A stretch of 46,449 bases of DNA, taken from the NCBI GenBank assembly GCA_035287825.1, contig DATEBK010000382.1:1-46449 (forward strand), given 5' to 3'. This document shows positions 8,420-46,449 of the stretch, piece after piece. The stretch is from Terriglobales bacterium. GTDB taxonomy: Bacteria > Acidobacteriota > Terriglobia > Terriglobales > Acidobacteriaceae. The position numbers were made by a program, and so were the translations under genes. Each line of letters opens with the position of its first letter. The stretch's first letter is position 1. Under the pieces are notes generated by a model that was given only the letters and a program-made list of their open reading frames with translations, was not told the origin of the DNA and searched no databases.

Positions 8420-8422
8420 GGA

Positions 8423-8534: not shown

Positions 8535-8569
8535 TTTCACCCGCTGTGCACATCCAATTAAAGGTTGCT

Positions 8570-26534: not shown

Positions 26535-26538
26535 CCCG

Positions 26539-29742: not shown

Positions 29743-29784
29743 TATGCTTCGAAATCCAACGCTCGGGAAAAAACACGAGTGGGC

Positions 29785-29853: not shown

Positions 29854-29854
29854 T

Positions 29855-31261: not shown

Positions 31262-31347
31262 TCGCAACCGCCAGCCGGTCTTCATCAGGCTCCGGACGCT
31301 TGCCTTTTCACGTTAGTCGCTCTTTTGTTATAGTTACCCTCACATTT

Positions 31348-31400: not shown

Positions 31401-32066
31401 ATGCCCGCTATGCTCGCGACCCGGAGCTCGGCCGCGGAAGCCGTCCATAATAACGTCGACGCGAAGTTCGAAGTCGGTCTGCGCGAACGCAAAAAAGCCC
31501 GCCTGCGCCAGCAGATCATCGACACTTCGATCAAGCTGTTTCGCAAGCGCGGCTATGAAGCCACACGCATCGACGATATCGTGCACGTCCTCGAAATCAG
31601 TCAACCCACGTTCTTTCGCTATTTCCCCAGCAAAGACGCGGTCTTGCGCGAAGTCGGAGAACGCGGCTACGCCTGCATCTGTGACCGGCTGCGTTCCGAG
31701 CTTTTAAGCAAAGAGCGCACCGGCGAGCGCCTGCGCCGACTCTACGTAACTATGGCGCGAGAAGTTGAAGCCGATCGGCAACTGTGGCAGGCGGTAGTTT
31801 TGTCGGGCGCAATGGATCCAGTTCGCTCCGCCGAACTGCGCGATCACGAAGAAGCTGCCGTCAGCCTGCTCCGCGAAATTCTCACCCAGGGCCAGAAGCG
31901 CGGCGAAGTGACACGCGCGTTCCCCGTCGTGCATCTCGCCGAATTCATGGAAGGCCTCTACAGCACGGTCGTGCGCCAGTGGGCCGTCGATCTCACCGGT
32001 CCACACAAACTCACAGACCGCGTGCGCAGCGCCGTCGACTTTTTTATGTGCGGCATTCGACCGTAA
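31401..32066 (+). CDS. TetR/AcrR-family transcriptional regulator
   Basis: N-terminal HTH: KLFRKRGYEATRIDDIVHVLEISQPTFFRYFPSKDAVL. 221 aa. It lies 41 nt upstream of the ADH gene and is the first gene of the co-directional array. Confidence 0.9.
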   Translation: MPAMLATRSSAAEAVHNNVDAKFEVGLRERKKARLRQQIIDTSIKLFRKRGYEATRIDDIVHVLEISQPTFFRYFPSKDAVLREVGERGYACICDRLRSELLSKERTGERLRRLYVTMAREVEADRQLWQAVVLSGAMDPVRSAELRDHEEAAVSLLREILTQGQKRGEVTRAFPVVHLAEFMEGLYSTVVRQWAVDLTGPHKLTDRVRSAVDFFMCGIRP

Positions 32067-32107
32067 GAACTCTTGTGTCAAAATTCTTGGAGAAAATTGC
32101 GATTCCG

Positions 32108-33124
32108 ATGAAAGCCGCTGTTCTGCACGCATTCAAGACCCCGCTATCGATCGAAGAAGTCCCGCGTCCACAGATCGCCGCCGATGAAGTCTTGATCCAG
32201 GTCGAAGTCTGCGGAGTCTGTCATTCCGATCTCCATGTCGCCGACGGCGATTGGGCGCAATTTGCCGGGATTGTAAAAAAGCCGCTGATTCTCGGACACG
32301 AAATCGTGGGTCGCGTCGTCGAATGTGGCGCAGCCGTCGAAACTCTCAAAGTAGGCGACCGCGTCGGCGTGCCTTGGCTGCAATTTACCTGCGGCCAATG
32401 TGAGTTTTGCCGAGAAGGCAATGAAAACCTATGCACCCGCCAGCGCATCACCGGAGTCATGGTCGATGGCGGCTATGCGGAGTTTGCCAAGTCTCCCGCC
32501 AGTCACGCTGTCAGAATTCCTGACGCGCTTTCCTCCGAGCAGGCCGCCCCTCTGCTGTGCGCGGGAGTGACCGTCCATCGCGCGTTGAAGCAGGCCAAGC
32601 TTCGTTCTGGCCAGTGCTTGGCCGTCTTCGGCATTGGAGGACTCGGCCACATCGCCGTCCAGATCGGTCGCGCCGCCGGCGCAGAAGTCACTGCCATCGA
32701 TATTTCTGAAGAGAAACTCGCCCTCGCGAAATCGCTCGGCGCCACTCGCACCCTGAACGCCACGACCTCTGAGGTCGTAAAAGAAATCCGCCGCGCCGGA
32801 GGAATGCATGTTGCCATCGTTACCTCCGCTGCCAAATCCGCCTACGATATGGCGTTCTACTGTGTACGGCCAACAGGCGCGCTTCTCGTGGTTGGCTTGC
32901 CCGCAAAAGAAATTTCATTTCCGCCGATCATGATGGCCGCCGGCGAAATTCACATCAAAGCCTCCGCCGTCGGTACGCGCGAAGACCTGCGCGAAGTTCT
33001 GGAGATGGGCGCAGCCGGAACTATTCATTGTCAGGTCGCAACGCGTCCTCTGGCAGATGTCCAGCAAGTTCTCGAGCAGTTGGCCCGCGGAGAAATCTCG
33101 GGCCGCGTCATTCTTCGGATGTAA
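32108..33124 (+). CDS. zinc-dependent alcohol dehydrogenase (MDR family)
   Basis: MKAAVLHAFKTPLSIEEVP, catalytic Zn motif GVCHSDLH, structural Zn CGQCEFCREGNENLC, and a GIGGLGH Rossmann motif. Confidence 0.92.
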   Translation: MKAAVLHAFKTPLSIEEVPRPQIAADEVLIQVEVCGVCHSDLHVADGDWAQFAGIVKKPLILGHEIVGRVVECGAAVETLKVGDRVGVPWLQFTCGQCEFCREGNENLCTRQRITGVMVDGGYAEFAKSPASHAVRIPDALSSEQAAPLLCAGVTVHRALKQAKLRSGQCLAVFGIGGLGHIAVQIGRAAGAEVTAIDISEEKLALAKSLGATRTLNATTSEVVKEIRRAGGMHVAIVTSAAKSAYDMAFYCVRPTGALLVVGLPAKEISFPPIMMAAGEIHIKASAVGTREDLREVLEMGAAGTIHCQVATRPLADVQQVLEQLARGEISGRVILRM

Positions 33125-33138
33125 GCAGTCGGCGTTCG

Positions 33139-33168
33139 TTGACGTTAGTGACTCTATTATGATATTAA
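33139..33168 (+). promoter_or_regulatory. internal promoter candidate TTGACG-N18-TATTAA upstream of the SDR gene
   Basis: It sits in the 70-nt AT-rich ADH-SDR gap, the largest gap in the TetR-led array. The -35 is at 33139-33144 and the -10 at 33163-33168. Confidence 0.3.
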
Positions 33169-33194
33169 CTATCGCGTTTGCCTGATACCACGTC

Positions 33195-33986
33195 GTGGGG
33201 AAAGCGCTTCTCAAGGTGGATGCCAAACAACTTTTCGATTTGACTGGCCGTGTCGCCATCGTCTCCGGCGGCTCAATGGGACTTGGGCGTCAGATGGCCG
33301 AGGGTTTGGCCGAAATGGGCGCGAATCTCGTGCTCTGCGCTCGAAAGAAAGAACGCTGCGAAGCGGCAGCCGAATCGTTGCGCCGTCTCGGCGTAGAGGT
33401 GTTGGCGCTCGGATGCGACGTCAAAGACAAATCGTCAATCGACGACGTCGTGGAAAAGACGCTCGCAAGATTTGGCCGCATCGACATCCTCATCAACAAT
33501 GCGGGCGTGTCCTGGGGAGCTCCAATCGAAGAGATGACCCTCGATCAGTGGGATAAAGTCCTCTCCACCAACCTGACCGGCACGTTTCTCTTTTGCCAGG
33601 CCGTCGCCAAACCCATGACCGCGCAAAAATCAGGCAAGATCATCAACATCGCCTCCGTAGCGGGTTTAGGCGGAGGGTCCGCCGAACTACAGGCCATCGG
33701 CTACCATGCCAGCAAAGGCGGCGTGATCGCCTTCACCAAAGACCTCGCGTGCAAATGGGCGCAGCATAACATTCAGGTGAATGCTATCGCGCCCGGCTGG
33801 TTTCCCACCCACATGTCAGAGTGGGTCATCGAGCACCGCAAAGATTCTCTGCTCTCGAAGATTCCTTTAGGACGCTTCGGCAGCGATCACGATTTAAAAG
33901 GAGCCGCGATATTTCTCGCCTCCAACGCATCGTCCTACGTGACCGGCCACGTGCTGGTGGTCGATGGCGGACAGACAGCTTGGTAA
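33195..33986 (+). CDS. SDR-family NAD(P)-dependent oxidoreductase
   Basis: Cofactor motif VSGGSMGLG, NNAG, and catalytic YHASKGG (YxxxK). GTG start at 33195. Confidence 0.9.
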   Translation: MGKALLKVDAKQLFDLTGRVAIVSGGSMGLGRQMAEGLAEMGANLVLCARKKERCEAAAESLRRLGVEVLALGCDVKDKSSIDDVVEKTLARFGRIDILINNAGVSWGAPIEEMTLDQWDKVLSTNLTGTFLFCQAVAKPMTAQKSGKIINIASVAGLGGGSAELQAIGYHASKGGVIAFTKDLACKWAQHNIQVNAIAPGWFPTHMSEWVIEHRKDSLLSKIPLGRFGSDHDLKGAAIFLASNASSYVTGHVLVVDGGQTAW

Positions 33987-34002
33987 TAAATTATTGCTTG
34001 AC

Positions 34003-35583
34003 ATGAATCTGCCACTCACTCCCGTCCGTTTCCTCCGTTACGCGGAGCAGCAGTTCCCCCGCAAAACGGCCGTCGTATGCGGCGAGCACCGCTTTACCTA
34101 CTCAGAGTTTGCCGATCGCGTTAGCCGCCTCGCTGGAGCATTGCGTTCCGCAGGCGTGAAGCCCGGCGATCGCATCGCCTTTCTCAGCCTGAATTGCCAT
34201 CGCCTGCTCGAAGCTTATTATGGGGTTCTCGAGGCCGGCTGCATTTTGCTCCCGCTCAACATTCGTCTCAACGGAGCCGAGCTCACCTACATCCTCAACG
34301 ATTCGGGCGCAACCATGCTCTTCCTCGAAGAAGAGTTCGCCGGCCTCGTCGATTCCTTCCGCCATGATCTTCGCACCGTCCGCAAGTTTCACCTGTTGGA
34401 TGGAACTCCGCCAGCGCCATGGCTTTCCGCTCAAACCTACGAACAAATGCTCGCCTCTGCCGCGTCCTTCCGCGAAGACTTGATGGTGTTCGACGAAAAT
34501 GCCGTGGCCGAAATTTTCTACACCAGTGGGACCAGCGCCAGTCCAAAAGGCGTGATGCTTACGCACCGCAACGTCTATCTCCACGCCCTCAATCTCGCCA
34601 TCTATCACCACACTCGCTACGAGAACGTGCTAATGCACACCATCCCGCTCTTTCACGCCAACGGCTGGGGAGCGGCCCACACCATCACCTCTGTTGGCGG
34701 AACGCACGTCATGCTCCCGCGCTTCCTGCCCGAAGAAGTATTTCGTCTCGTGCAAGCGGAAAAAGTCAGCGCGCTGAGTCTTGTCCCCATCATGGCCATG
34801 GTGCTCATCAATTCGCCCGCGCGCTCCAAATACGATCTCAGCAGTGTGGAGTGGTCCGTGATTGGTGGAGCGGCCTCTTCTCCGACGTTGATCCGCGAGG
34901 TCGAAGAAAAGCTCGGCTTCAAATGTTTTTCTGGCTACGGCCTCACCGAGTGTTCGCCCTCGCTCGCCACTGCCGAATTAAAGCCCGGCATGCACGGCAC
35001 GCTCGAGGAAGAACAGGCGATCCAGGCTATGACTGGCTACGCCTACCCCGGCTCCGAGCTGCGCGTAGTCGACGCTGACGACAACGATATTCCGCGCGAC
35101 GGTGTCACCATGGGAGAAATCATCGCCCGCAGTGACGGTGTGATGGCCGGCTACTGGGGCCAGCCCGAAGCCACCGCGGAAGCCTTGCGGGGCGGCTGGT
35201 TTCACACTGGCGACATGGCCGTGATCGAGCCAAATGGATACATCCGCATCGTCGATCGCAAGAAAGATATCATCGTGAGCGGCGGAGAAAATATTTCTTC
35301 ACTCGACGTTGAAAAAGTTCTGGCATCGCATCCCGAAGTTTTCGAAGCGGCCGTGATTCCCGTGTCTCACCAGAAGTGGGGCGAAGCACCGAAGGCGATC
35401 GTCGTAGCCAAACCGGGATGCAAACTCAACGAAGTGGATCTGATTGAATTTTGCCGCGCGCGTCTCGCCCACTACAAGTGTCCACAATCGATTGAATTCT
35501 GTGACAGCTTGCCCAAAACCGCTACCGGAAAAGTCCTTAAACGAGAGCTGAGAAAAAAGTATCAGGTGGAAACTCCCCTATGA
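34003..35583 (+). CDS. acyl-CoA synthetase / fatty-acid--CoA ligase (class I adenylate-forming)
   Basis: AMP-binding motif YTSGTSASPKGV, GYGLTE, and TGDMAVIEPNGYIRIVDRKKD. Its stop overlaps the next start (ATGA at 35580-35583). Confidence 0.92.
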   Translation: MNLPLTPVRFLRYAEQQFPRKTAVVCGEHRFTYSEFADRVSRLAGALRSAGVKPGDRIAFLSLNCHRLLEAYYGVLEAGCILLPLNIRLNGAELTYILNDSGATMLFLEEEFAGLVDSFRHDLRTVRKFHLLDGTPPAPWLSAQTYEQMLASAASFREDLMVFDENAVAEIFYTSGTSASPKGVMLTHRNVYLHALNLAIYHHTRYENVLMHTIPLFHANGWGAAHTITSVGGTHVMLPRFLPEEVFRLVQAEKVSALSLVPIMAMVLINSPARSKYDLSSVEWSVIGGAASSPTLIREVEEKLGFKCFSGYGLTECSPSLATAELKPGMHGTLEEEQAIQAMTGYAYPGSELRVVDADDNDIPRDGVTMGEIIARSDGVMAGYWGQPEATAEALRGGWFHTGDMAVIEPNGYIRIVDRKKDIIVSGGENISSLDVEKVLASHPEVFEAAVIPVSHQKWGEAPKAIVVAKPGCKLNEVDLIEFCRARLAHYKCPQSIEFCDSLPKTATGKVLKRELRKKYQVETPL

Positions 35584-37790
35584 ATAATTTAGTAAAAGTC
35601 ACCCGAGCGAATCAGAACGATAGTGAGAGTGAGAAAAATAACGGCATCGCCATCATCACCATCGATAACCCGCCCGTGAACGCGCTCAGCCCCGGCGTTC
35701 CTGAGGCCATCTCGGCGGCAATCGACGAGATCAATGCCGACCCCGCCGTCAAAGCCGCCGTCGTAATCGGCGCGGGCCGCACGTTCGTTGCCGGAGCCGA
35801 TATCAAGGAATTCGTCAAGATGACCGCCGCTGGAGCGCGCCGCGCAACTTTGCTTCCTCTGCTGCTTCGCATCGAAGATAGCGCCAAACCCATCGTCATG
35901 GCGATTCACGGAAGCGCATTCGGTGGCGGCCTGGAACTCGCCATGGCCGGCCACTACCGCGTAGCGTCACCCACGGCGCAAGTCGGCCAGCCCGAAGTCA
36001 AACTCGGCATCATTCCCGGAGCCGGCGGGACCCAGCGCCTCCCGCGCCTCGTCGGTTTAGCCAAAGCAGTCGAAATGTGTGCCGAGGGCAAGCCCGTTTC
36101 CGCGCGTGATGCCGCTGAGCTCGGCCTCATCGACCAGCTTATCGAAGGCGACCTTCTTACCGGAGCAATATCTTTCGCCCATGATGTCGCTGGCAAACCC
36201 GCTCCCAAAACCCGCGAGCGTACCGCCAAGCTCGGAACTCCCACCGAGAACGCCGCCATCTTCGCTGCGGCACGCTCCGTTGCTGCCAAAAAGCAACGTG
36301 GATTAAAAGCTCCGCTTGCCGCCATCGATGCCATCGAAGCCGGAACCAGGTTGTCATTCGACGAAGGCTGCCAGGCTGAGGCGAAGCTTTTCACCGAATG
36401 TCTTTTCTCCGATCAATCGAAAGCGCTCATTCACGTTTTCTTCGGCGAGCGCGAAGTCGCGAAGATTCCTGACGTCCCCAAAGAAACTCCGACTCTGCCC
36501 GTGAATCGTGCGGCGGTTGTCGGCTCCGGAACCATGGGCGGAGGTATCGCCATGGTCTTCGCCAATGCCGGCATTCCTGTACTGCTGAAAGACGTTGACG
36601 AAGCCGCGCTCGCAGCCGGAATCGCAAAAATTCGTAAGAACTACGCGACCTCAGTCGAGCGTGGACGCTTCACTCAAGCATTCGTCGATGAACGCCTGCA
36701 AATGATCACCCCTGTCCAAAGCTACGATGCGTTTTCCAGCGTAGACATGGTGGTGGAAGCCGTATTCGAAGGCATGGCCCTCAAGAAAGAAGTTTTCGCT
36801 GAACTCGACCGCGCCTGCCGCCCCGGAGCGATTCTCGCCAGCAACACCTCGACTCTCAACATTGACGAAATCGCCGCTGCCACATCTCGGCCCGAATCTG
36901 TGATTGGAACGCACTTCTTCAGTCCCGCCAATGTCATGCGCCTGCTCGAAATCGTTCGTGGAAAAAAGACCAGCAAAGAAGTTATTGCCACTTGTATGCA
37001 GCTCTCAAAGAAACTCGGCAAGATAGGCGTGCTGGTCGGCAACTGTCGCGGCTTCGTCGGCAATCGCATGTTCGGCCCCTATCGCCGCGAAGCGCAATTC
37101 CTCATCGAAGAAGGGGCCGACATCGAAGCTGTCGATCAAGCGCTGGTCGCATTTGGTAATGCCATGGGGCCGCTCGCCACCGGAGATCTCGCAGGTCTCG
37201 ATGTAGGTTGGCGTATTCGCAAAGAATATCGTCACCTCGAAAAACCAGGAATCCGGCAGCCCTTCGCAGAAGACCGCCTTTGCGAACTCGGCCGCTACGG
37301 CCAGAAGACCTCGAAAGGCTGGTATCGCTACGACGAAAACCGGCGTCCGGTCGCCGATCCCGAGGTCATTGCGCTAATTCGAAAGTGGAGCGCCGATGCC
37401 GGCATCCCGCAACGCCAGATTTCCTCCGATGAGATCGTTGATCGCTGCACATATGCGCTCGTCAACGAAGGCGCGCGAATTCTCGAAGAGGGCTACGCAC
37501 TGCGCGCCGTCGACATCGACATCATCTATCTCAACGGTTACGGATTTCCCGCCTACCGCGGTGGTCCGATGTGGTATGCCGACACGGTGGGATTGTCGAA
37601 GGTTTATCAGCGCGTTTGCGAGTTTCAGCAGCAGCACGGAGAAATCTGGGCGCCCGCACCTCTATTGAAACGTTGGCCGAAGCTGGCAAAACATTCGCCG
37701 AGTTTGACAAAGAGCAGCTCGTGGCCGCCTAACCACCGGTGCGAAGCTGGGTTCTCAGTTGATTTTGACACACAGAAGTTGAGGAGCTGA
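35580..37790 (+). CDS. bifunctional enoyl-CoA hydratase / 3-hydroxyacyl-CoA dehydrogenase (FadB/FadJ-like); the 3' end is probably frameshifted
   Basis: Crotonase part ITIDNPPVNAL, HGSAFGGGLELAMA. Dehydrogenase Rossmann VVGSGTMGGGIA. After ...APAPLLKR (about 37671) the annotated frame reads WPKLAKHSPSLTKSSSWPPNH..., while the +2 frame reads LAEAGKTFAEFDKEQLVAA and stops at 37730-37732, which looks like the native tail. Confidence 0.85.
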   Translation: MNNLVKVTRANQNDSESEKNNGIAIITIDNPPVNALSPGVPEAISAAIDEINADPAVKAAVVIGAGRTFVAGADIKEFVKMTAAGARRATLLPLLLRIEDSAKPIVMAIHGSAFGGGLELAMAGHYRVASPTAQVGQPEVKLGIIPGAGGTQRLPRLVGLAKAVEMCAEGKPVSARDAAELGLIDQLIEGDLLTGAISFAHDVAGKPAPKTRERTAKLGTPTENAAIFAAARSVAAKKQRGLKAPLAAIDAIEAGTRLSFDEGCQAEAKLFTECLFSDQSKALIHVFFGEREVAKIPDVPKETPTLPVNRAAVVGSGTMGGGIAMVFANAGIPVLLKDVDEAALAAGIAKIRKNYATSVERGRFTQAFVDERLQMITPVQSYDAFSSVDMVVEAVFEGMALKKEVFAELDRACRPGAILASNTSTLNIDEIAAATSRPESVIGTHFFSPANVMRLLEIVRGKKTSKEVIATCMQLSKKLGKIGVLVGNCRGFVGNRMFGPYRREAQFLIEEGADIEAVDQALVAFGNAMGPLATGDLAGLDVGWRIRKEYRHLEKPGIRQPFAEDRLCELGRYGQKTSKGWYRYDENRRPVADPEVIALIRKWSADAGIPQRQISSDEIVDRCTYALVNEGARILEEGYALRAVDIDIIYLNGYGFPAYRGGPMWYADTVGLSKVYQRVCEFQQQHGEIWAPAPLLKRWPKLAKHSPSLTKSSSWPPNHRCEAGFSVDFDTQKLRS

Positions 37791-39004
37791 TGAGAGAAGC
37801 AGTCATCGTAACCAGTTCGCGTACCGCGCTAGCCAAATCATTTCGCGGATCATTCAACCTGACGCGTCCCGAAGAACTCGCCGCGCATTGCATTCAAGAT
37901 GTGCTGCGCAAAACACCGCAACTCGATCCCCGCGAAGTCGAAGACGTCATTCTCGGTTGCGGACAGCCTCACGGCCCGCAAGGTCACAACATCGCACGAG
38001 TCGCCGCTCTGCTGGCCGGTTTGCCGACTTCAGTCGGCGGCCTCACTCTCAACCGCTTCTGCTCTTCCGGTCTTCAATCCATCGCGCAGGCCGCGTATCA
38101 AGTCGTCAGCGGAGGCAGCGACGCAATAATCGCCGGCGGCGTCGAAAGCATCACGCTCGTGCCGCGCAACAGCGATCCCAATCCCCGCCTGCTGGAAAAA
38201 TATCCCGGCGTCTACATGGTGATGGGCGACACCGCCGAAGTCGTAGCCAAGCGCTACAAAATCAGCCGTCAGGCGCAAGACGAATACGCTCTGCTCAGCC
38301 AGCAGCGCACCGCTCGCGCCCAGCAGGAAGGCTTCTTCGGGAAAGAAATTGCTCCCATGCACGTCATTCGAGCCACGCTCGATAAAAAAACCGGCGAAGT
38401 CATCGCGAAAGAAGAAGTCTGCGCCGATAAGGACGAATGCAATCGCCCCGATACGACGCTCCAAGGCCTACTGGCTCTCAAGCCGCACTTCGACACGACC
38501 AGCGGCAGCGGAACCGTCACCGCCGGAAATTCTTCCCAGCTTTCCGACGGCGCATCCGCCACGCTCGTAATGTCGCGCCAACGCGCCGACCACCTTGGCA
38601 TCCCGTACAAATTAATTTTTCGCGGCTTCCAGATCGCCGGCTGCGATCCCGACGAAATGGGAATCGGCCCCGTATTCGCCGTTCCAAAATTGTTACAGCG
38701 CGCCGGCCTCAAATCGAGCGACATCGATCTTTGGGAGCTCAACGAGGCCTTCGCCGTTCAAGTCATCTACTGCCGCGACCGCCTCCAAATCGATCCCGAG
38801 AAAATGAATGTCAACGGCGGTTCCATCTCCATCGGCCATCCCTTCGGCATGACCGGCTCGCGCATGGTCGGAACTCTGGCCAATGAAATGGCGCGTCGCA
38901 GATCCAACAACAAAACTCGCTACGGAGTTGTCACCATGTGCGTCGGTGGCGGCCAGGGCGCCGCCGGACTCTTTGAATCTGCACACGGGGAAAGCGCGGC
39001 ATGA
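37790..39004 (+). CDS. acetyl-CoA C-acyltransferase (thiolase), second copy
   Basis: [44 protein letters not shown] Shine-Dalgarno lies upstream. The start overlaps the upstream stop by 1 nt (TGATG). Confidence 0.93.
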
Positions 39005-39017
39005 AAGTGCAAAACGC

Positions 39018-39746
39018 ATGAGCCACATCGTCCTCGTGCGTCACGGGCAAGCTTCTTTTCTCGGAGCCGATTATGACAAGCTTTCCGCCAACGGCGAAGC
39101 GCAAGCGAAGTTGCTCGGGGAATACTGGTCGCGCCGTGCCACCGTTTTTGCCAGCGCATACTCCGGCCCGCGTGTCCGCCAACGCGAGACCGCCCGCATC
39201 GTGGCTGATGCATATCGCGCCGCCGGCGCCGACTTTCCCGAGCCAAAGATCATGACCGATTTCGACGAATATCAAGCGGAAGCCGTCTTGCGTGAATGTC
39301 TGCCGCAACTGCTGCAAGTGGATCCCGCGATCCGGGAAATGCGTCTCGCTTTTGAAAACGCGAAAGGCTCCGGTGATTCTCTCGATCGCCGCAAAACATT
39401 TCAAAAGCTGTTTGAAGCCGTAATAGCGAAATGGGTCGCAGGAGACGTCACCGCCCCCGGCATTGAATCGTGGTCCGATTTCTGCCTGCGCGTAGAACGA
39501 GGACTGGCCGAAGTCGTTCGCGCCACTCCCGCCGCCGCGGCCGCTGTCATCTTCACATCTGCCGGCCCGATTGGAGCGGCCATGCGCCGCGCATTGCATC
39601 TGTCCGCCCAAGACATGCTGCAGATCACCTGGGCGTCGCTCAACGCCTCTTTCAGCACTTTTCTCGCTTCCGGCGACCGCTTCTCTTTGGGCGCGTTCAA
39701 CGCGTACCCGCATCTTGATGGCGATGGCTTGTTGACGTACCGATAG
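39018..39746 (+). CDS. histidine phosphatase (phosphoglycerate-mutase-like) superfamily protein
   Basis: MSHIVLVRHGQASF carries the RHG catalytic motif, and LSANGEAQAKLLG and RQRETA are family-typical. The region expected to read SHG reads SAG (A182, codon 39561-39563). Confidence 0.8.
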   Translation: MSHIVLVRHGQASFLGADYDKLSANGEAQAKLLGEYWSRRATVFASAYSGPRVRQRETARIVADAYRAAGADFPEPKIMTDFDEYQAEAVLRECLPQLLQVDPAIREMRLAFENAKGSGDSLDRRKTFQKLFEAVIAKWVAGDVTAPGIESWSDFCLRVERGLAEVVRATPAAAAAVIFTSAGPIGAAMRRALHLSAQDMLQITWASLNASFSTFLASGDRFSLGAFNAYPHLDGDGLLTYR

Positions 39747-39760
39747 AAAGAGTTACAACT

Positions 39761-40837
39761 ATGGTTGCGCTTTGTGATCAAGCGGGAATGGTGAGGGCCG
39801 GTGAAGCACTCGACATCGCCCGGCTGGAGCCGTTCTTACAAGAGCGCTTCGCCTCCACGGGCAACCTATCCGTCGAACAATTTCCCAGCGGCCACTCGAA
39901 CCTCACCTACCTTGTTCGTCTCGGCAGCAGGGAACTCGTTCTGCGCCGTCCGCCGTTCGGCAGCAAAGTCCGTTCTGCGCATGACATGTCGCGCGAGTAT
40001 CGCGTGCTCTCGAAATTGCACACTGCCTATCCCGTCGCCCCCAAAGCGCTCCTCTACTGCGATGATCCGTCGATTCTCGGCGCGCCGTTCTATCTGATGG
40101 AACCAATTCACGGAATCATCCTGCGCCGCGATCCGCCCGCCGGTGTGCCGTTTCCGCCGGAGACTGCGCGGCGATTAAGCGAAGCGTTCATCGCCAACCT
40201 GGCGCGCTTGCATTCGCTCGACTACGCTGCTATCGGATTTTCTGATCTTGGAAAGCCGCAAGGCTATCTCGAACGCCAGGTCACTGGCTGGATCGAGCGC
40301 TATCACAACTCAAAAACGCACGACCTGCCGGAAGTCGAAAGCATTTCCACTTGGCTCACGGCGCGACTCCCGGACATTCTCGAGAAAGCGCACCAGCCCG
40401 CGATCATCCACAACGATTACAAGTACGACAATGTTGTGCTCGATCCAAGCGATGCCACCAAAATCGTCGGCGTTCTCGATTGGGAAATGTGCACCATCGG
40501 CGATCCGCTCTCCGATCTAGGAACCGCACTGGCCTACTGGACCGATCCGCAAGATCCGAACGATTTCCAGGAAATTCGCAGCGCGCCTACCACCTTGCCC
40601 GGCATGCTGACGCGGTTACAACTCATCGAGCGTTATGCAGCCGCCACTGGCCGTGATCCGCGTGGCATGGTTTTTTATCTCGCCTTCGCCCGCTTCAAAG
40701 TTGCCGTCATCATTCAGCAAATCTACTACCGCTTCGCCCAGGGACTAACACAGGACGAACGTTTCGCGACCCTGCCCGCGAAAGTCCACACCTTGCTGCG
40801 CGCCTCATGGCGCTGCGCGGAAAGCGGAACTATATGA
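39761..40837 (+). CDS. APH-fold phosphotransferase of the ACAD10/ACAD11 N-terminal-domain-like type
   Basis: FPSGHSNLTYLVRLGSRELVLRRPPFGSKVRSAHDMSREYRVLSKL resembles the ACAD10/11 kinase-domain N-lobe. Catalytic loop IIHNDYKYDN (H217-x-D219-x4-N224) and Mg-binding D240 (VLDWE) are intact. Confidence 0.82.
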   Translation: MVALCDQAGMVRAGEALDIARLEPFLQERFASTGNLSVEQFPSGHSNLTYLVRLGSRELVLRRPPFGSKVRSAHDMSREYRVLSKLHTAYPVAPKALLYCDDPSILGAPFYLMEPIHGIILRRDPPAGVPFPPETARRLSEAFIANLARLHSLDYAAIGFSDLGKPQGYLERQVTGWIERYHNSKTHDLPEVESISTWLTARLPDILEKAHQPAIIHNDYKYDNVVLDPSDATKIVGVLDWEMCTIGDPLSDLGTALAYWTDPQDPNDFQEIRSAPTTLPGMLTRLQLIERYAAATGRDPRGMVFYLAFARFKVAVIIQQIYYRFAQGLTQDERFATLPAKVHTLLRASWRCAESGTI

Positions 40838-40845
40838 CCAGGCAC

Positions 40846-41328
40846 TCATTTCGCGTAGTAGCGGATGAGCCACTCGGCAACGCAACAAGGTTTTTCCGCC
40901 GCCGCGCCGCTCGCATCCTGACTCTCAACTTGAACAAGAAAAACGGCATCGACAAACCCAACTGCTTCCTTAACCGAAAGCAACGTAATCCGGCCCCGCA
41001 CCGCCGATCCAGCGCGCAGCGTCGACGGAAAGCGAACTCTGTTCAGTCCGTAGTTGACCGTCATCGCCAGTCCCGAACGAATATGAATCGCCTCCTTCAG
41101 AAAATGTGGCAGCAGCGAAAGCGTCAGGAACCCGTGCGCGATGCTGCCGCCGAATGGCGTCTCACGCCCTGCCCGTTCCGCGTCCAGGTGGATCCATTGC
41201 CGGTCCTCGGTAGCGTCGGCAAACCTCTCGATGCGCTCCTGCGTGACCACGAACCACTCCGTCGCCGGAAACTGGCGTCCCTCGCACGATTTCAAGGAAT
41301 TACAATTTTCAATCTCAAAAGGTGGCAT
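40846..41328 (-). CDS. MaoC-family (R)-specific enoyl-CoA hydratase / hot-dog-fold dehydratase
   Basis: FADATEDRQWIHLDAERAGRETPFGGSIAHGFLTLSLL is the MaoC hydratase motif. It is the only minus-strand gene between 31.4 and 46.4 kb. Confidence 0.88.
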   Translation of the reverse strand: MPPFEIENCNSLKSCEGRQFPATEWFVVTQERIERFADATEDRQWIHLDAERAGRETPFGGSIAHGFLTLSLLPHFLKEAIHIRSGLAMTVNYGLNRVRFPSTLRAGSAVRGRITLLSVKEAVGFVDAVFLVQVESQDASGAAAEKPCCVAEWLIRYYAK

Positions 41329-41339
41329 AGGAGTTTGTC

Positions 41340-43115
41340 ATGACGACATTAACAGACATCTCGCGCAAAACCACAAAGGGCGTTGCGTTCCTCATCGAAA
41401 ACTCTACCCCGCACGACATCTTCACGCCTGAAGATCTAAGTGACGAACATCTCGCCGTCGGCCGCATGGTCGATGAATTCTGGGCCAACGAAGTCGAACC
41501 GAATCTGCCCGCCATCCGCGAAAAAAAGCCCGGCGCTGCCATGGCTGTGCTGCGCAAGTCGGTCGACCTCGGCCTCACCGCCATGGCCATCCCCGAAGAA
41601 TATGGAGGCATGGCCATGGATCTCCCATCTCTGATGGTCACCGCCGAGCGCATGGGTCGCGACGGTTCCTACGGAGGTTGGCACTCCGCTCATACCGGTA
41701 TCGGTACCTTGCCCATCGTCTACTTCGGCAACGAACAGCAGAAAAGAAAATATCTTCCGAAGCTGGCGAAAGTTGAACTGCTCGCCGCTTACGCGCTTAC
41801 CGAGCCTCTCGCCGGATCGGACGCGCTTTCCGCTCGCACCCGCGCCGATCTTGCCCCCGATGGCATGCACTACATCCTCAACGGCCAGAAAATGTGGATC
41901 ACCAACGGCGGCGCTGCCGATCTCTTTACCGTCTTTGCGAAAGTCGGCGGAGAAAAGTTCACCGCATTTCTCGTTGAGCGCAACTTTCCCGGCGTGAGCA
42001 GCGGAGCCGAAGAACACAAAATGGGAATCACCGGCAGTTCGACCACCGCCGTTTATCTCGATAACGTCGCCGTGCCGCTCGAAAACGTCCTCGGAGAAAT
42101 TGGCCGTGGCCACGTCATCGCCTTCAACATACTCAACATCGGCCGTCTCAAACTCGGCCCCGCGTTAGTCGGAGCCGCAAAAAACGTCTTGGCCGTCAGT
42201 ATCAAATACGCCAAACAGCGCAAGGCATTCGGAACGACCATTTCTGAGTTCGGAGCAATCCAGCACAAACTCGCCGAAATGATGATTCGCATCTTCGTCG
42301 CCGAATCGATGGCGTGGCGCGTTGTCGGACTGATCGAAAGTCAAATGCACGCCGTCGAATCAGCTAACAATCCGAACCAGGAACTGAAGGCCATCGAAGA
42401 GTTCGCCGCCGAGTGCTCCATGGTCAAGGTCTATGCCGCAGAGATGCTCGACTACGTTGTCGACGAAGGCGTCCAGATCCACGGCGGTTACGGATACCAC
42501 CAGGACTACGCCGTCGAACGCTACTACCGTGACGCGCGCATCAACCGCCTGTTTGAAGGCACCAGTGAAATCAATCGTCTGGTGATCACCGGCATGCCGC
42601 TAAAACGCGCTGCCCGCGGACTTCTGCCGCTGTTCGAGGCCGCCAGCGAAGTCCTCCAACAACTCAATCAGCCGCTCAAGTCAGCCGGCAACGCCGCCGA
42701 CGCCGAAATGACCCTCGTCCACAATGCGAAACAAATCGCGCTCCTCACGCTCGCCGTCGCCCACCAGAAATTCGGTACCCAACTCGAGCAGCAACAGGAG
42801 ATCGTCATGAACCTCTCCGACATCATCATGGAGGTCTTCGCCATGGAATCCGCCCTGCTCCGCTCTCGCAAACTCGCCGCCGCCGGCGGGGGTCTCAATG
42901 CTGCCGACGCCTGCGCCGTCCACTTGCGAGACGCCATCGCCAAAGTCGAGCTCTCATCTCGCACCATTCTGAGTGCCGCCGTCCAAAGCGGCGACGACTT
43001 GCGCCGCTATCTTTCTCGCGTCCGCGAATATGCCAATCACGATCCTGTGAACTCCATCGCGCTCCGCCGTCAGATCGCCGTCCGCTTGTTGGCAAGTGAG
43101 CGCTATACCGTCTGA
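41340..43115 (+). CDS. acyl-CoA dehydrogenase, VLCAD-like long type (591 aa), paralog of 15814-17610
   Basis: YALTEPLAGSDA, KMWITNGGAADLFTVFAK, RINRLFEGTSEINR. An AGGAG Shine-Dalgarno at 41329-41335 abuts the MaoC start codon. Confidence 0.92.
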   Translation: MTTLTDISRKTTKGVAFLIENSTPHDIFTPEDLSDEHLAVGRMVDEFWANEVEPNLPAIREKKPGAAMAVLRKSVDLGLTAMAIPEEYGGMAMDLPSLMVTAERMGRDGSYGGWHSAHTGIGTLPIVYFGNEQQKRKYLPKLAKVELLAAYALTEPLAGSDALSARTRADLAPDGMHYILNGQKMWITNGGAADLFTVFAKVGGEKFTAFLVERNFPGVSSGAEEHKMGITGSSTTAVYLDNVAVPLENVLGEIGRGHVIAFNILNIGRLKLGPALVGAAKNVLAVSIKYAKQRKAFGTTISEFGAIQHKLAEMMIRIFVAESMAWRVVGLIESQMHAVESANNPNQELKAIEEFAAECSMVKVYAAEMLDYVVDEGVQIHGGYGYHQDYAVERYYRDARINRLFEGTSEINRLVITGMPLKRAARGLLPLFEAASEVLQQLNQPLKSAGNAADAEMTLVHNAKQIALLTLAVAHQKFGTQLEQQQEIVMNLSDIIMEVFAMESALLRSRKLAAAGGGLNAADACAVHLRDAIAKVELSSRTILSAAVQSGDDLRRYLSRVREYANHDPVNSIALRRQIAVRLLASERYTV

Positions 43116-43142
43116 GCCGCGCACGATACCGAAGGAGCCATC

Positions 43143-44153
43143 ATGCCCCCAACTAATCACAAGTTTCTTCTCGCCGCGCGTCCCGTTGGCATGCCCAAGC
43201 CAACCGACTGGACCTTCACCGAAGAACCGCTCCCAGAGCCGAAAGACGGCGAATTCCTCGTCCGGATCCTCTACATCTCGCTCGATCCTGCCATGCGCAT
43301 GTGGATGAACGACGTACGTTCCTACATCCCGCCCGTCGCCATCGGAGAAGTGATGCGCGCTCTTGCCCTCGGTGTCGTCACCGCATCGCGCAATCCCCGC
43401 TTCGCCGTTGGCGATCACGTCTCTGGAGCATTCGGCGTTCAGGAATACGCGCTCACCGACGGCCGCCGCGTCACCAAGATCGATCCTAAACTCGCACCTC
43501 TGCCAAAATTTCTCAGTGTCTTCGGCATGACTGGCATGACCGCATATTTCGCTCTGCTCGATACCGGCCAGCTCCAGCCCGGAGAAACCGTTGTCATCTC
43601 CGCCGCTGCCGGAGCCGTCGGCGCGCTCGCCGGCCAGATCGCCAAAATCAAGAATTGCCGCGTCGTCGGCATCGCCGGCGGAGCAGAGAAGTGCCGCTAC
43701 ATCGTCCACGAACTCGGCTTCGATGCCGCCATCGATTACAAATCCAATAATGAAGATGTCAAGCAGTCGCTGCGCAAGCATTGCCCCGACGGAATCGACG
43801 TTTATTTCGATAACGTCGGCGGCACGATTCTTGAGGCCGCGCTCGCCAACATCCGCATGCACGCACGCATCGTGATCTGCGGCGCCATCTCCCAGTACAA
43901 CAACACCGGCCCCGCCACTGGCCCGCGCAACTACATGTCGTTGCTCACCAATCGCGCCAGCATGAAAGGCATGCTGGTCATGGATTACGCCGACCGTTTT
44001 CCCCAGGCCCTCGCGGAAATGGCAACCTGGGTCGCCGCCGGCAAACTGAAATCCCGCGAAGACATCGTCGAAGGCATCGCAACCTTCCCCGAAACCCTGC
44101 TCAAGCTTTTCAAAAGCGAGAACACCGGCAAGCTGATGCTAAAGGTGAACTAA
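43143..44153 (+). CDS. NADP-dependent oxidoreductase of the PTGR1/LTB4-12-HD/CurA (alkenal/enone double-bond reductase) MDR subgroup
   Basis: The N-terminus NHKFLLAARPVGMPKPTDWTFTEEPLPEPKDGEFLVRILYISLDPAMRMWMND parallels E. coli CurA/YncB. Cofactor motif AAAGAVGALAGQIAK. No zinc ligands. Confidence 0.85.
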   Translation: MPPTNHKFLLAARPVGMPKPTDWTFTEEPLPEPKDGEFLVRILYISLDPAMRMWMNDVRSYIPPVAIGEVMRALALGVVTASRNPRFAVGDHVSGAFGVQEYALTDGRRVTKIDPKLAPLPKFLSVFGMTGMTAYFALLDTGQLQPGETVVISAAAGAVGALAGQIAKIKNCRVVGIAGGAEKCRYIVHELGFDAAIDYKSNNEDVKQSLRKHCPDGIDVYFDNVGGTILEAALANIRMHARIVICGAISQYNNTGPATGPRNYMSLLTNRASMKGMLVMDYADRFPQALAEMATWVAAGKLKSREDIVEGIATFPETLLKLFKSENTGKLMLKVN

Positions 44154-44161
44154 GGTACTGA

Positions 44162-44992
44162 ATGTCATTCGTCGAAAACCAAGGCGTGAAAATCTACTGG
44201 GATGAACAATCCCCCCAGCCAGGCCCCGCCCGCGCCGAAGCCCCGCCGCTCCTGCTGATCATGGGTCTCGGCTATGCCTCGGCTCTATGGCATCGCATTC
44301 GCCCCGTGCTGGCGCAGCATTTCCGCACCATCGCCTTCGACAATCGCGGCGTCGGATCAAGCGCTGTCCCGCCCGGGCCTTATCCCATCGCGACCATGGC
44401 CTCCGATGCTGCCGCCGTTCTCGACGCCGCCCGCATCGCCCGCGCCCACGTCTTCGGAGTCTCCATGGGCGGCATGATCGCCCAGGAGTTCGCCCTGCAA
44501 TATCCCACCAGAACGCGCTCCCTCATTCTCGGATGCACCTCGTCCGGCGGTCCTTCAGCCGTGCGCGCCGAAAGTAAAGTCATCGACATTTTGTTCTCGC
44601 GCGGCATGACCCTCGCGCAAGCACGCGAGGCCATCATCCCCTACATCTACGATGCGGCGACGCCGCGAGAAAAAATCGCCGAAGATATGGCCCTTCGCCA
44701 GTCCTGCCTGCCCACGCCCGAAGGCTACATGGCGCAACTCCAAGGCATTCTCGCCTGGGAAGCCTACAGCCGCATCGCTCAGATCACTGCGCCTACCCTC
44801 GTCATCCACGGCAAATCCGATGCCCTCGTTCCTCCCGGCAACGGCCAACTCATCGCCGCGCGCATTCCCGGAGCGAAACTCCTCCTCCTCGATCACGCCA
44901 GTCACCTGTTTCTCACCGATCAACCTGAAGCCTCGCAAAAAGCGATCCTCGAATTTCTCTCGCCCCACTCCTCCAGCAGAGAACCCGCCTAG
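44162..44992 (+). CDS. alpha/beta-fold hydrolase
   Basis: Oxyanion region LLLIMGLG, nucleophile elbow GVSMGG, and a C-terminal His in DHASHLF. 276 aa. Confidence 0.85.
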   Translation: MSFVENQGVKIYWDEQSPQPGPARAEAPPLLLIMGLGYASALWHRIRPVLAQHFRTIAFDNRGVGSSAVPPGPYPIATMASDAAAVLDAARIARAHVFGVSMGGMIAQEFALQYPTRTRSLILGCTSSGGPSAVRAESKVIDILFSRGMTLAQAREAIIPYIYDAATPREKIAEDMALRQSCLPTPEGYMAQLQGILAWEAYSRIAQITAPTLVIHGKSDALVPPGNGQLIAARIPGAKLLLLDHASHLFLTDQPEASQKAILEFLSPHSSSREPA

Positions 44993-45334: not shown

Positions 45335-46449
45335 ATGGATTTTGGACAACGTTGTCTCACGCGAGTGTTTGTTGTTTTCGCAATCCTCGCCTGCTTCCTC
45401 TGTCTCGCGCTCCCGTCTCATGCCCAGGGCGTCGGCTCCTCCGGAGAAATCACCGGTACCGTCACCGACTCCTCCGGAGGCGTTCTGCTCAAGGCGACCG
45501 TCGAGATCGTCGATACCCAGACCGGTCTCCGGCGCACAGTCACCACCAACTCCAGCGGCCAGTTCCGCGTTACCGGACTCTCTCCCGCCACCTACGACGT
45601 CAGCGCGCAAATGACGGGCTTCGCCACCGGTATCCGTAAAGCCGTAACCGTTGCCGTCGGCCAGACCGTCGTTTCCGACTTCAAATTGACTTTGTCCAAA
45701 GTTGCGACCGTCGTCGAAGTCACCGATCAACCTCCCGTCGTTGAAACCGAACGCGGCAGTCAGGCCGATCGCATCACCCAGCAGTACATCGCCGACCTGC
45801 CCGTTGACCGGCGCGACTATCTCACGTTTACCTTGCTCGCGCCCGGCGTCTCCGATTCCACCCGCCTCGCTGGCGATCAGGATTTCCGCGTCAAGCAAAC
45901 GCCGCAAAGTGGTCTGTCCTTCTACGGCAGCAACGGCCGCGGCAACAGCATCACTGTCGATGGCGGAGAAACTTCCGGCGACAGTGGCGGCGTCCGTCTC
46001 ACCGTGAGCCAGGACGATGTACAGGAATTCCAGATCAACCGCAGCAACTATGCCGCCGAGCTCGGCTCCGCCACCGGAGCTTCCGTCAACATCGTCACCA
46101 AGTCCGGCACCAACGACGTTCACGGCTCCCTCTACGGATTTTTCCGTGACGATGCTCTTGGCGCCGCCAGTCCCTTCTCCTTCAGCCAGGCCTTACAACC
46201 CGGAGAGGTTTTTAATCCCGCCAATCCCGACACCTTCGGCTCGCCCGTCAAAGACACTCTCACTCGCCAGCAATTCGGCGGTACGTTCGGTTTCCCCATC
46301 TATAAAGACAAAACATTTCTCTTTGCCGATTTCGAGGGCCTTCGCCAGAACGCGCAAAATGCCGTTCCGCTGCTCACCGACACTGATATTTTTCGTCCCA
46401 CGGCAGCGCAAAACGCCATCATCGCTAATCTGGCAACCTCGGCAAACCC
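45335..46449 (+). CDS. TonB-dependent receptor with N-terminal carboxypeptidase-regulatory-like domain (5' partial, continues past the window end); absent from supplied ORF track
   Basis: Hand translation from ATG 45335 shows no stop through 46449: MDFGQRCLTRVFVVFAILACFLCLALPSHAQGVGSSGEITGTVTDSSGGVLLKATVEIVDTQTGLRRTVTTNSSGQFRVTGLSPATYDV... then the plug region DRRDYLTFTLLAPGV...GSNGRGNSITVDGGE...NIVTKSGTNDVHGSLYGFFRDD. Confidence 0.88.
   Translation, partial: MDFGQRCLTRVFVVFAILACFLCLALPSHAQGVGSSGEITGTVTDSSGGVLLKATVEIVDTQTGLRRTVTTNSSGQFRVTGLSPATYDVSAQMTGFATGIRKAVTVAVGQTVVSDFKLTLSKVATVVEVTDQPPVVETERGSQADRITQQYIADLPVDRRDYLTFTLLAPGVSDSTRLAGDQDFRVKQTPQSGLSFYGSNGRGNSITVDGGETSGDSGGVRLTVSQDDVQEFQINRSNYAAELGSATGASVNIVTKSGTNDVHGSLYGFFRDDALGAASPFSFSQALQPGEVFNPANPDTFGSPVKDTLTRQQFGGTFGFPIYKDKTFLFADFEGLRQNAQNAVPLLTDTDIFRPTAAQNAIIANLATSAN

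Follow-up and report, generated by a model that had tools for sequence, protein, structure and literature searches.

A TetR-led beta-oxidation array in Acidobacteriota that probably includes an entry module for 4-hydroxyacyl-CoAs

How a bacterium might bring fatty acids with a hydroxyl or oxo group at C4 into beta-oxidation is the question posed by a twelve-gene array in a Terriglobales bacterium (Acidobacteriota; GenBank assembly GCA_035287825.1). The array occupies positions 31401 to 44992 of contig DATEBK010000382.1, whose 46,449 nucleotides are referred to here as the window, and it combines a TetR-family regulator and a beta-oxidation core with an APH-fold kinase, a histidine-phosphatase-fold protein, oxidoreductases, and a hydrolase. 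A preliminary description had proposed the array as an entry route for 4-hydroxy and 4-oxo acids, and this is the best reading of it, based on the clade of the kinase and the co-conserved short-chain dehydrogenase/reductase (SDR), acyl-CoA synthetase, MaoC, and beta-oxidation genes. The locus is probably a TetR-controlled beta-oxidation operon that absorbed a widespread bacterial module for 4-hydroxyacyl-CoA entry. The kinase and lyase chemistry of this route has been established for LvaA and LvaC of Pseudomonas putida, for a Burkholderia pseudomallei pair, and for ACAD10 and ACAD11 (PMC12440821, PMC11342911).

In the open reading frame (ORF) list of the window, all twelve genes were found where the preliminary description had placed them. 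The eleven junctions, recomputed from the ORF coordinates (41, 70, 16, −4, −1, 13, 14, 8, 11, 27, and 8 nucleotides), reproduced the earlier values exactly, and a Pfam search agreed with the domain class proposed for each of the twelve proteins.

The array kinase groups with the ACAD10/11 N-terminal kinases

The gene most informative about the chemistry of the array encodes the kinase (39761 to 40837, plus strand; Pfam APH, 179.6 bits against a cut-off of 23.2). An alternative start at 39788 (Met10), the choice of gene callers on near-identical contigs, would give a protein of 349 amino acids. Among PDB sequences, the kinase matched 9o56 at 6e-110, 3dxp at 1e-50, and the cryo-electron microscopy chains of mouse ACAD11 (8v3v and 8v3u) at about 3e-49, with the next APH families far weaker (1.8e-10 and 4e-10, and APH(2'') at 3e-4). 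The sole NCBIfam match was a thiamine kinase model, at 25 bits versus a cut-off of 299. By these PDB and NCBIfam rankings, the protein does not cluster with aminoglycoside, choline, homoserine, or thiamine kinases. Identity over the alignments was 51% to 9o56 and 36% to the kinase domain of mouse ACAD11. Structure 9o56 appears to be the Caldalkalibacillus thermarum “ACAD10 kinase” of Ye et al. (PMC13596139); the match was made from residue numbering rather than the PDB record, and all seven residues numbered in that paper (R61, E78, D214, K216, N219, D234, and E236) agree with the chain.

The catalytic set examined in the kinase comprised the beta3 Arg, the alphaC Glu, the Asp and Lys of HxDxK, the Asn, and the DWE motif. 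All are intact (R62, E79, H217-N-D219-Y-K221, N224, and D240-W-E242) and align with the set in 9o56. Arginines that contact CoA have been modeled in ACAD11, including R176 (PMC12440821), and two arginines of the array kinase, R78 (S-R-E-Y, beside the alphaC Glu) and R172 (L-E-R-Q-V), align with these contacts, a match that depends on the alignment and in which the numbering of the first Arg is a few residues off relative to that paper. PDB ranking, catalytic residues, and CoA-contact arginines thus agree in placing the enzyme in the ACAD10/11-N (LvaA-type) clade, as the preliminary description had suspected, and it is predicted to be a 4-hydroxyacyl-CoA kinase. A standalone B. pseudomallei kinase and acyl-CoA dehydrogenase (ACAD) can replace the ACAD10 domains in vitro, with 4-hydroxyhexanoyl-CoA as the substrate (PMC11342911).

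An LvaC-type dehydrogenase is encoded just past the end of the window

Phosphate-eliminating ACADs are defined by an HCMR motif, a catalytic Asp in place of Glu, and an upstream Arg (Rashan et al., PMC12440821; Paquay et al.). The sole ACAD within the array (41340 to 43115, plus strand; Pfam Acyl-CoA_dh_N, Acyl-CoA_dh_M, and Acyl-CoA_dh_1, plus Acyl-CoA-dh_C at 91 bits) resembles very-long-chain acyl-CoA dehydrogenase (VLCAD). It passed the NCBIfam FadE equivalog model NF058590 at 748.4 bits versus a cut-off of 600 (residues 13 to 591), and its best PDB matches were the VLCAD-like bacterial proteins 3owa and 2z1q, followed by ACAD9 and VLCAD. The catalytic Glu is retained in F-E-G-T at residues 405 to 408, and a scan of the protein for the lyase motifs found no HCMR (no H.MR), no Asp of ADGP, and no upstream Arg; the segment aligned with the HCMR region reads NILNIGRLKLGPALVG. 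The array ACAD shares 25 to 28% identity with the LvaC-type ACADs found at related loci. A paralogue elsewhere in the window (15814 to 17610) is 49% identical to the array ACAD and has no kinase beside it. Judged from these sequence features, the array ACAD is a FadE of the Bacillus type, a dehydrogenase for ordinary beta-oxidation and not the enzyme that eliminates phosphate.

The contig was followed past the window end by an exact-match scan of Joint Genome Institute (JGI) metagenome contigs with 35 nucleotides of the window end. The scan returned one 79-kb contig, Ga0210385_10000137, of which a 3.9-kb piece (L084) was analyzed; exact look-ups with the kinase sequence returned no contig, and those with the hydrolase sequence returned only short contigs ending inside the outer-membrane protein gene next to the array. 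The reverse complement of L084 matches window positions 46271 to 46449 (179 nucleotides) with 0 mismatches and extends this outer-membrane protein gene, begun at 45335, with OMP_b-brl_4 and TonB_dep_Rec domains there. Beyond it, on the minus strand, L084 encodes an ACAD with GRIHHCMR and RIADGPDEVH. This gene spans the window equivalent of 49102 (stop codon) to beyond 50178, placing it 2.7 kb past the window end. Relative to the kinase, it is 8.3 kb downstream and oppositely oriented; the position predicted from synteny was about 49.1 to 50.4 kb in window coordinates, past the end at 46449.

The L084 enzyme is 64% identical to an ACAD of a related acidobacterial locus, L058 (11654 to 13018), whose match to the ACAD11 ACAD domain is 3.5e-145 and which carries GRIHHCMR and RLADGPDEVH. 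The ACAD of a second related locus (L003:19372-20619) matches 4hr3 at 9e-166 and ACAD11 at 1e-137. Because the L084 gene lies on a contig whose 179-nucleotide overlap with the window has no mismatch, the genome region of the window encodes the canonical partner of the kinase. The claim that every enzyme class of the lva route is present holds for the synthetase, SDR, and kinase within the array, while the ACAD of the array is a FadE and the LvaC-type enzyme lies outside the window. The VLCAD-like ACAD had been described as a departure from known systems, an impression that does not survive and that is explained by the window boundary. For genome scanning the lesson is that a boundary of this kind produced an apparent novelty, namely a missing lyase and a VLCAD-like stand-in.

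At the edge of L084 (positions 1 to 60, window equivalent of about 50119 to 50178, minus strand), an AT-rich, in-frame, Asn/Asp-rich stretch, PGSNSNSGDNHNDNNHNDNN, is found just before the conserved GAGLTNVEYAPLAE of the ACAD. This could be a low-complexity insertion or an artefact of assembly or storage.

The array genes are co-conserved in Acidobacteriota and the module extends to other phyla

Conservation was surveyed with a kinase scan of one genome per GTDB species, which yielded 80 loci, nearly all from metagenome-assembled genomes of Terriglobia, with kinase identities of 55 to 81%; the best locus reached 81%, and the window's own species is absent from the set. The window proteins and four reference proteins from L058 were mapped onto the 80 loci by tblastn, and the term full loci is used for the 60 in which the kinase is flanked by 9 kb or more on either side. 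A common layout emerged, consisting of SDR, synthetase, in some loci a PimC/PimD-like ACAD pair, FadB, in some loci a thiolase, histidine phosphatase, and kinase. After the kinase, MaoC, ACAD, and enoyl-CoA hydratase genes on the opposite strand converge on it, and MaoC was the gene directly downstream in 63 of 78 loci. Among full loci, the synthetase was present in 56, the SDR in 52, and FadB in 44, while an LvaC-type ACAD was found within 10 kb of the kinase in 43 and within 1.5 kb in 33. Other genes of the window were less frequent in the same set (hydrolase, 27; enone reductase, 21; TetR, 14; VLCAD-like ACAD, 14).

The exact gene order of the window recurs in 15 related acidobacterial loci with kinase identities of 68 to 81%, and the zinc-dependent alcohol dehydrogenase (Zn-ADH) is found mostly in loci of this type. 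In these 15 loci, the FadE, enone reductase, and hydrolase genes occupy the usual place of the LvaC-type ACAD beside MaoC, and in nine of them, L003 being one, a minus-strand LvaC-type ACAD gene follows 8.1 to 9.2 kb after the kinase. With gene order kept in 15 genomes and a core set in most of the 80 loci, the survey that the preliminary description had called for bears out its grouping of the genes, and the array is not a chance juxtaposition.

Outside this phylum, a tblastn search of PLSDB with the kinase returned 307 records, and six annotated neighborhoods were examined (Azospirillum, Deinococcus radiodurans, Ideonella, Streptomyces, Pseudoalteromonas, and Deinococcus sp. NW-56). All six have the order ACAD, SDR(s), phosphotransferase, and histidine phosphatase, often with another SDR after, so that SDRs flank the kinase in each of them. 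The ACAD-SDR-kinase-phosphatase module is found in Alpha-, Beta-, and Gammaproteobacteria, Actinomycetota, and Deinococcota. Its ACADs carry HCMR, and its phosphatases are 32 to 36% identical to that of the window, with the same signature. In the D. radiodurans module, the SDR and MaoC are 47% and 44% identical to their counterparts in the window. The modules of Deinococcus also contain MaoC and PaaI thioesterase genes.

The PimC/PimD-like ACAD pair, which resembles the two subunits of pimeloyl-CoA dehydrogenase but scored under the NCBIfam cut-offs, separates the synthetase and FadB genes in 32 of the 60 full loci, including some of the closest relatives (for example L058:3442-4629 and 4641-5744, and L003:3448-4635 and about 4650-5755). 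In the window the pair is absent and the synthetase and FadB genes overlap by 4 nucleotides. As a candidate for the lyase it was rejected, having no close match to ACAD11 and no copy in the window.

A proposed route from hydroxy and oxo fatty acids to ordinary beta-oxidation

The array genes can be ordered into a pathway. The AMP-dependent acyl-CoA synthetase (34003 to 35583, plus strand, with an alternative ATG start at 33964; Pfam AMP-binding and AMP-binding_C; NCBIfam PRK06187, 536 bits, cut-off 476) would activate hydroxy and oxo fatty acids, some of which the hydrolase, Zn-ADH, and enone reductase may release or trim beforehand. The FadE-type ACAD, the FadB/FadJ-type enoyl-CoA hydratase/3-hydroxyacyl-CoA dehydrogenase (35580 to 37790, plus strand; Pfam ECH_1, 3HCDH_N, and 3HCDH; nearest NCBIfam models FadJ and FadB, under their cut-offs), and the 3-ketoacyl-CoA thiolase (37790 to 39004, plus strand; Pfam Thiolase_N/C; NCBIfam TIGR01930, 429 bits, cut-off 241) would then shorten the acyl chain by ordinary beta-oxidation cycles. 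Once the hydroxyl or oxo group is at C4, the SDR (33195 to 33986, plus strand; Pfam adh_short; NCBIfam PRK08213, 362 bits, cut-off 279), which takes the position of LvaD, would interconvert 4-oxoacyl-CoA and 4-hydroxyacyl-CoA and set the 4-hydroxy state.

The kinase would next phosphorylate the 4-hydroxyl, and the LvaC/ACAD11-type flavoenzyme encoded 8.3 kb downstream would eliminate the phosphate to give a 2-enoyl-CoA. The MaoC-type (R)-specific enoyl-CoA hydratase (40846 to 41328, minus strand; Pfam MaoC_dehydratas) or FadB would take this product onward to the thiolase. By analogy with the HAD domain of ACAD10, the histidine-phosphatase-fold protein would most likely hydrolyze stalled, mis-made, or off-pathway phosphorylated intermediates.

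The combination of a long-chain-type synthetase and a VLCAD-like FadE suggests medium- to long-chain substrates, and it is an attractive idea that fatty acids with a mid-chain hydroxyl might undergo shortening until this group arrives at C4. Three accessory genes could plausibly act as funnels for lactones and 4-hydroxyalkenals. These encode an alpha/beta hydrolase, a possible lactonase or esterase (44162 to 44992, plus strand; Pfam Abhydrolase_1; nearest NCBIfam model the 3-oxoadipate enol-lactonase PcaD, 154 bits versus a cut-off of 256); a CurA/PTGR1-type NADPH enone (alkenal/one) reductase (43143 to 44153, plus strand; Pfam ADH_N_2 and ADH_zinc_N; nearest model CurA, 381 bits versus a cut-off of 440); and the AdhP/Ahr-like zinc-dependent alcohol/aldehyde dehydrogenase (32108 to 33124, plus strand; Pfam ADH_N and ADH_zinc_N; nearest models AdhP, 305 bits with a cut-off of 344, and Ahr, both under cut-off).

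In the Deinococcus sp. NW-56 plasmid, the module cluster contains an SMP-30/gluconolactonase-family gene (L090:723-1811) and an alpha/beta hydrolase (7357-8289), which is independent, if circumstantial, evidence in favor of lactone substrates. In the window's region and in the closest relatives alike, the array and the LvaC-type ACAD are separated by a large TonB-dependent-receptor-like outer-membrane protein gene with a CarboxypepD_reg-like N terminus; its 5' part is the open ATG frame that begins at 45335 on the plus strand and runs into the window end at 46449, and its product is possibly a component of substrate uptake.

Several observations weigh against assigning this route to the array. 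Experimental support comes from homologues only, none of them acidobacterial, and the activity of the C. thermarum kinase on a 1-O-alkylglycerol leaves the substrate of the array kinase unsettled by homology alone. The lyase gene is four genes away from the kinase and on the other strand in the window's lineage, L084 covers this ACAD without its 5' third and ends in the odd Asn/Asp-rich stretch, and in 6 of the 15 window-type loci no LvaC-type ACAD lies inside the 10-kb flank, where the sequence ends. The phosphatase lacks the canonical second His, which makes its activity uncertain. Finally, the antisense MaoC gene, with gaps of 8 nucleotides to the kinase and 11 nucleotides to FadE (start codon to start codon), is a poor fit to simple co-transcription.

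The orientation of MaoC means that the array is not one simple transcription unit, and with junctions this short the MaoC promoter must lie inside the FadE coding region. In relatives, MaoC is the last gene of an operon of enoyl-CoA hydratase, LvaC-type ACAD, and MaoC that faces the kinase, and in the window it looks like a remnant of this ancestral convergent operon.

An atypical histidine phosphatase accompanies the kinase

Directly upstream of the kinase, with a 14-nucleotide gap, is the gene for the histidine-phosphatase-fold protein (39018 to 39746, plus strand; Pfam His_Phos_1, 65.3 bits in two stretches, cut-off 21.7). The preliminary description listed this protein, in the place of the ACAD10 HAD domain, as a difference from known systems. 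It is instead part of the usual bacterial arrangement, being found directly upstream of the kinase in 56 of 76 acidobacterial loci and beside it in all six annotated loci, which represent four phyla, and the pairing is already known from Pseudomonas citronellolis. In strain LA18T of that species, the levulinate-induced cluster runs lvaA homologue, histidine phosphatase, lvaC homologue, and lvaD homologue, with no lvaB (PMC6692424). Its authors proposed, without testing, that the phosphatase removes phosphate from 4-phosphovaleryl-CoA. A full-text literature search combining histidine phosphatase, phosphotransferase, and acyl-CoA dehydrogenase found no further paper on the association.

Conservation of the phosphatase was assessed with 60 acidobacterial orthologues and with 138 full-length representatives of clusters formed at 50% identity. 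The nucleophile of the RHG motif (R8-H9), the second Arg (R54), and the acidic E84 are each present in at least 137 of 139 sequences, and the near-invariant positions are Arg8-His9, Arg54, Glu84, Ser181, Gly183, Asn209, Asn228, and His232. In contrast to these, the second catalytic His (“SHG”) was found at none of positions 180 to 184 in the 138 representatives, save one His180 in one sequence. The motif at this site is F-T-S-[G/A]-G-P, and in a weak profile alignment Ala182 falls opposite the His of 3c7t. The conserved C-terminal His232 might stand in for the missing residue. A PDB sequence search with the phosphatase returned nothing at E ≤ 0.01, a PDB profile search gave weak N-terminal matches, and an AlphaFold2 model built from a shallow alignment of 18 sequences was poor (mean predicted local distance difference test score of 59) and was not used. 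The family contains 2736 clusters at E ≤ 1e-3 and at least 294 clusters (50% identity) at E ≤ 1e-30. No member of the subfamily, which includes L058:9269-9988, L085:8058-8771, L086:8121-8834, and L087:8058-8750, appears to be characterized.

This subfamily travels with the kinase and the LvaC-type lyase across at least five phyla, and a tentative suggestion is that it is a phosphatase dedicated to 4-phosphoacyl-CoAs or 4-phosphoacids. If it is correct, bacteria with a histidine-phosphatase fold and animals with the HAD domain of ACAD10 would have independently attached a phosphatase to the kinase, which would suggest that the phosphorylated intermediate generally has to be proofread or throttled. 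Being wired into a full beta-oxidation operon, the module of Acidobacteria might allow use of mid-chain-hydroxylated fatty acids from plants or microbes and of gamma-lactones in soil and peat.

The phosphatase-fold protein might instead partner the kinase in a noncatalytic or regulatory way, as a functional counterpart of P. putida LvaB. Its place at the lvaB position in P. citronellolis, where no lvaB homologue is found (PMC6692424), would fit such a role, as would the absence of the canonical second His throughout the subfamily and the tight coupling of the two genes, which in five of six loci from other phyla overlap or are separated by at most 15 nucleotides. However, His9, Arg8, Arg54, and Glu84 are near invariant across the 138 clusters, which share at most 50% mutual identity, whereas pseudoenzymes usually lose such residues. 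The additional conserved His232 could replace the missing His, and the B. pseudomallei kinase works alone in vitro. On balance, an LvaB-like role appears rather unlikely. In either case, the role of this atypical histidine phosphatase, the conserved third protein of the bacterial module, is a question for the whole module and not for the array alone. The role of the ACAD10 HAD domain is itself debated, and the bacterial clusters provide a simple genetic system in which to address what the phosphatase does.

Ether lipids as a possible alternative substrate

A different view of the same two genes, and the main rival to the reading above, is that they encode a 1-O-alkylglycerol kinase and a lipid-phosphate phosphatase for ether lipids and are merely located inside a fatty-acid operon. 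Acidobacteria make ether-linked lipids. The C. thermarum enzyme, to which the array kinase is 51% identical, phosphorylates the 1-O-alkylglycerol chimyl alcohol in vitro, and the HAD domain of ACAD10 has been reported as an ether-lipid phosphatase (PMC13596139). Genomic context and CoA-binding features argue otherwise. Across phyla the pair is linked to LvaC-type ACADs, SDRs, and MaoC, and no glycerolipid genes occur in those neighborhoods. The kinase retains the arginines that align with ACAD11 CoA contacts, acetyl-CoA stimulates the C. thermarum enzyme, which has a predicted CoA site (PMC13596139), and the B. pseudomallei homologue acts on 4-hydroxyhexanoyl-CoA. An ether-lipid function for the pair is therefore considered improbable.

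Two conserved promoter-like blocks may mark the regulated unit

The first gene of the array encodes the TetR-family protein (31401 to 32066, plus strand; Pfam TetR_N, 49.9 bits), likely an acyl-CoA-responsive repressor of the array. Its ATG at 31401 is invariant in the alignment of window-type loci. NCBIfam similarity to the TetR-type FadR and to KstR was weak and under cut-off for both models (FadR, 40 bits versus 200). Upstream of this gene lies a promoter- and operator-like block (31305 to 31345, plus strand) that begins TTCACGTTAGTCGCTCTTTTGTTATAGT and contains a promoter scan match at 31305 to 31334. Across 11 aligned window-type loci, a stretch of about 40 nucleotides is nearly invariant here in surroundings that cannot be aligned; in relatives it reads TTGACGTTAGTCGCTATTTTGTTATAGT, with a −35 hexamer TTGACG and an extended −10 element TGTTATAGT. 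Each of 13 loci has a single copy of the motif, always 5' of TetR, and the window also has one.

A second block of this kind (33139 to 33176, plus strand) sits in the 70-nucleotide gap upstream of the SDR. It starts with TTGACGTTAGT-N-GATATT, overlaps a promoter-like site at 33139 to 33166, and is conserved among window-type loci. With up to one mismatch, the 11-mer TTGACGTTAGT was found in the window only at 31307 and 33139, compared with 0.25 occurrences expected, and 3 of 100 shuffles had two or more matches. More distant loci with no TetR gene in the examined region carry the palindrome GTTAGTNNCTAAC just upstream of the SDR (L034:883-895, L037:873-885, L044:1651-1663, L048:2100-2112, and L068:715-727), which implies a regulator encoded elsewhere and an operator half-site shared with the blocks of the window. 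A general search for inverted repeats around TetR yielded no palindrome between genes; the blocks came from cross-genome alignment. These patterns suggest that the ancestral regulated unit starts at the SDR, that the window's lineage added TetR and ADH together with a copy of the operator, and that TetR may control both promoters through these putative operators.

Directly upstream of TetR on the same strand is a resistance-nodulation-division (RND) efflux operon (25245 to 31261) encoding a membrane-fusion protein, an AcrB-type pump, and an outer-membrane factor. TetR-family repressors commonly control such pumps, and TetR could in principle regulate this one, leaving the twelve genes outside a single regulon. 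Yet no related locus shows synteny between the pump and TetR, whereas the TetR-ADH-SDR order is kept in 15, and TetR has its own conserved promoter block, partly repeated upstream of the SDR, making this reading highly improbable. Scarcely credible, finally, is a self-contained array in which the VLCAD-like ACAD has taken over phosphate elimination: it does lie two genes downstream of the kinase, where other loci have their LvaC-type ACAD, but it passes the Bacillus-type FadE model, keeps the catalytic Glu without the HCMR, upstream Arg, and Asp of lyases (PMC12440821), has a 49%-identical paralogue in the window with no neighboring kinase, and shares its genome region with a genuine LvaC-type gene.

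Comparison with known systems

Because the route is known from Pseudomonas and from mammalian ACAD10 and ACAD11, the 4-hydroxyacyl-CoA entry module described here is a new acidobacterial example rather than a new system. What is unusual is that the module is embedded in beta-oxidation genes, led by TetR, and separated from its lyase gene. The array resembles P. putida lvaABCDE in combining an acyl-CoA synthetase and an SDR with an APH-fold kinase from the same clade, and its genome region also encodes an LvaC-type ACAD with HCMR and the catalytic Asp; the SDR and synthetase are likened to LvaD and LvaE by enzyme class and co-conservation. Like the P. citronellolis LA18T cluster (PMC6692424), the array has a histidine-phosphatase gene beside the kinase where P. 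putida has lvaB, and its junctions of at most 70 nucleotides would leave no room for an extra gene such as the small LvaB. Unlike lva, it has a TetR-family regulator instead of a sigma-54 LvaR-type one (modules of other phyla use LysR or TetR), sits inside a complete FadB/thiolase/FadE operon, has a synthetase of the long-chain subfamily, has its lyase gene displaced 8.3 kb downstream on the other strand, and adds MaoC, enone reductase, Zn-ADH, and hydrolase genes.

Relative to the mammalian proteins, the kinase, 36% identical to the mouse ACAD11 kinase domain, has the same catalytic residues and CoA-contact arginines, the partner ACADs of related loci carry HCMR and the Asp and match the ACAD11 ACAD domain at 1e-137 to 3.5e-145, and the kinase is accompanied by a protein of phosphatase fold, as it is in ACAD10. 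In contrast to the array, where the proteins are separate and the kinase and lyase genes of the window's lineage are not adjacent, the mammalian kinase and ACAD are fused, and ACAD10 has an N-terminal HAD domain where the array has a histidine-phosphatase fold. The closest bacterial relatives that have been solved or assayed are C. thermarum 9o56, Cupriavidus 3dxp, and the B. pseudomallei pair; the last of these performs the 4-hydroxyacyl-CoA reactions in vitro, whereas the C. thermarum enzyme was assayed on 1-O-alkylglycerols and not on acyl-CoAs. Similarity also extends to fadN-fadA-fadE of Bacillus subtilis, which has FadB-like, thiolase, and VLCAD-like FadE genes with a TetR-family regulator. 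However, the array carries kinase, phosphatase, and MaoC genes between thiolase and FadE, and its TetR falls far under the FadR cut-off (40 versus 200 bits).

With this example, the abundant Acidobacteria of soil and peat would join the organisms in which 4-hydroxy fatty acids enter catabolism through a kinase. The wiring of the route into a regulated beta-oxidation operon suggests that it helps to consume hydroxy fatty acids, lactones, or lipid-peroxidation products as soil carbon turns over.

Other features of the window

A search of the window against Rfam returned no match, and a scan for terminators found 22 sites compared with 17.2 ± 5.5 in shuffles, which is chance level. About 24 kb upstream of the array, a second thiolase (13728 to 14906) and the second VLCAD-like Bacillus-type ACAD (15814 to 17610) enclose an ORF of 185 amino acids without a Pfam match, and this group resembles a separate beta-oxidation set. 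Elsewhere the window encodes a methylmalonyl-CoA mutase (619 to 2280, minus strand), the T and P proteins of glycine cleavage (6820 to 11454, plus strand), a SAM hydroxide adenosyltransferase-family protein (20100 to 20927, minus strand), and an 849-amino-acid Ser/Thr protein kinase with TPR repeats (21016 to 23565, minus strand).

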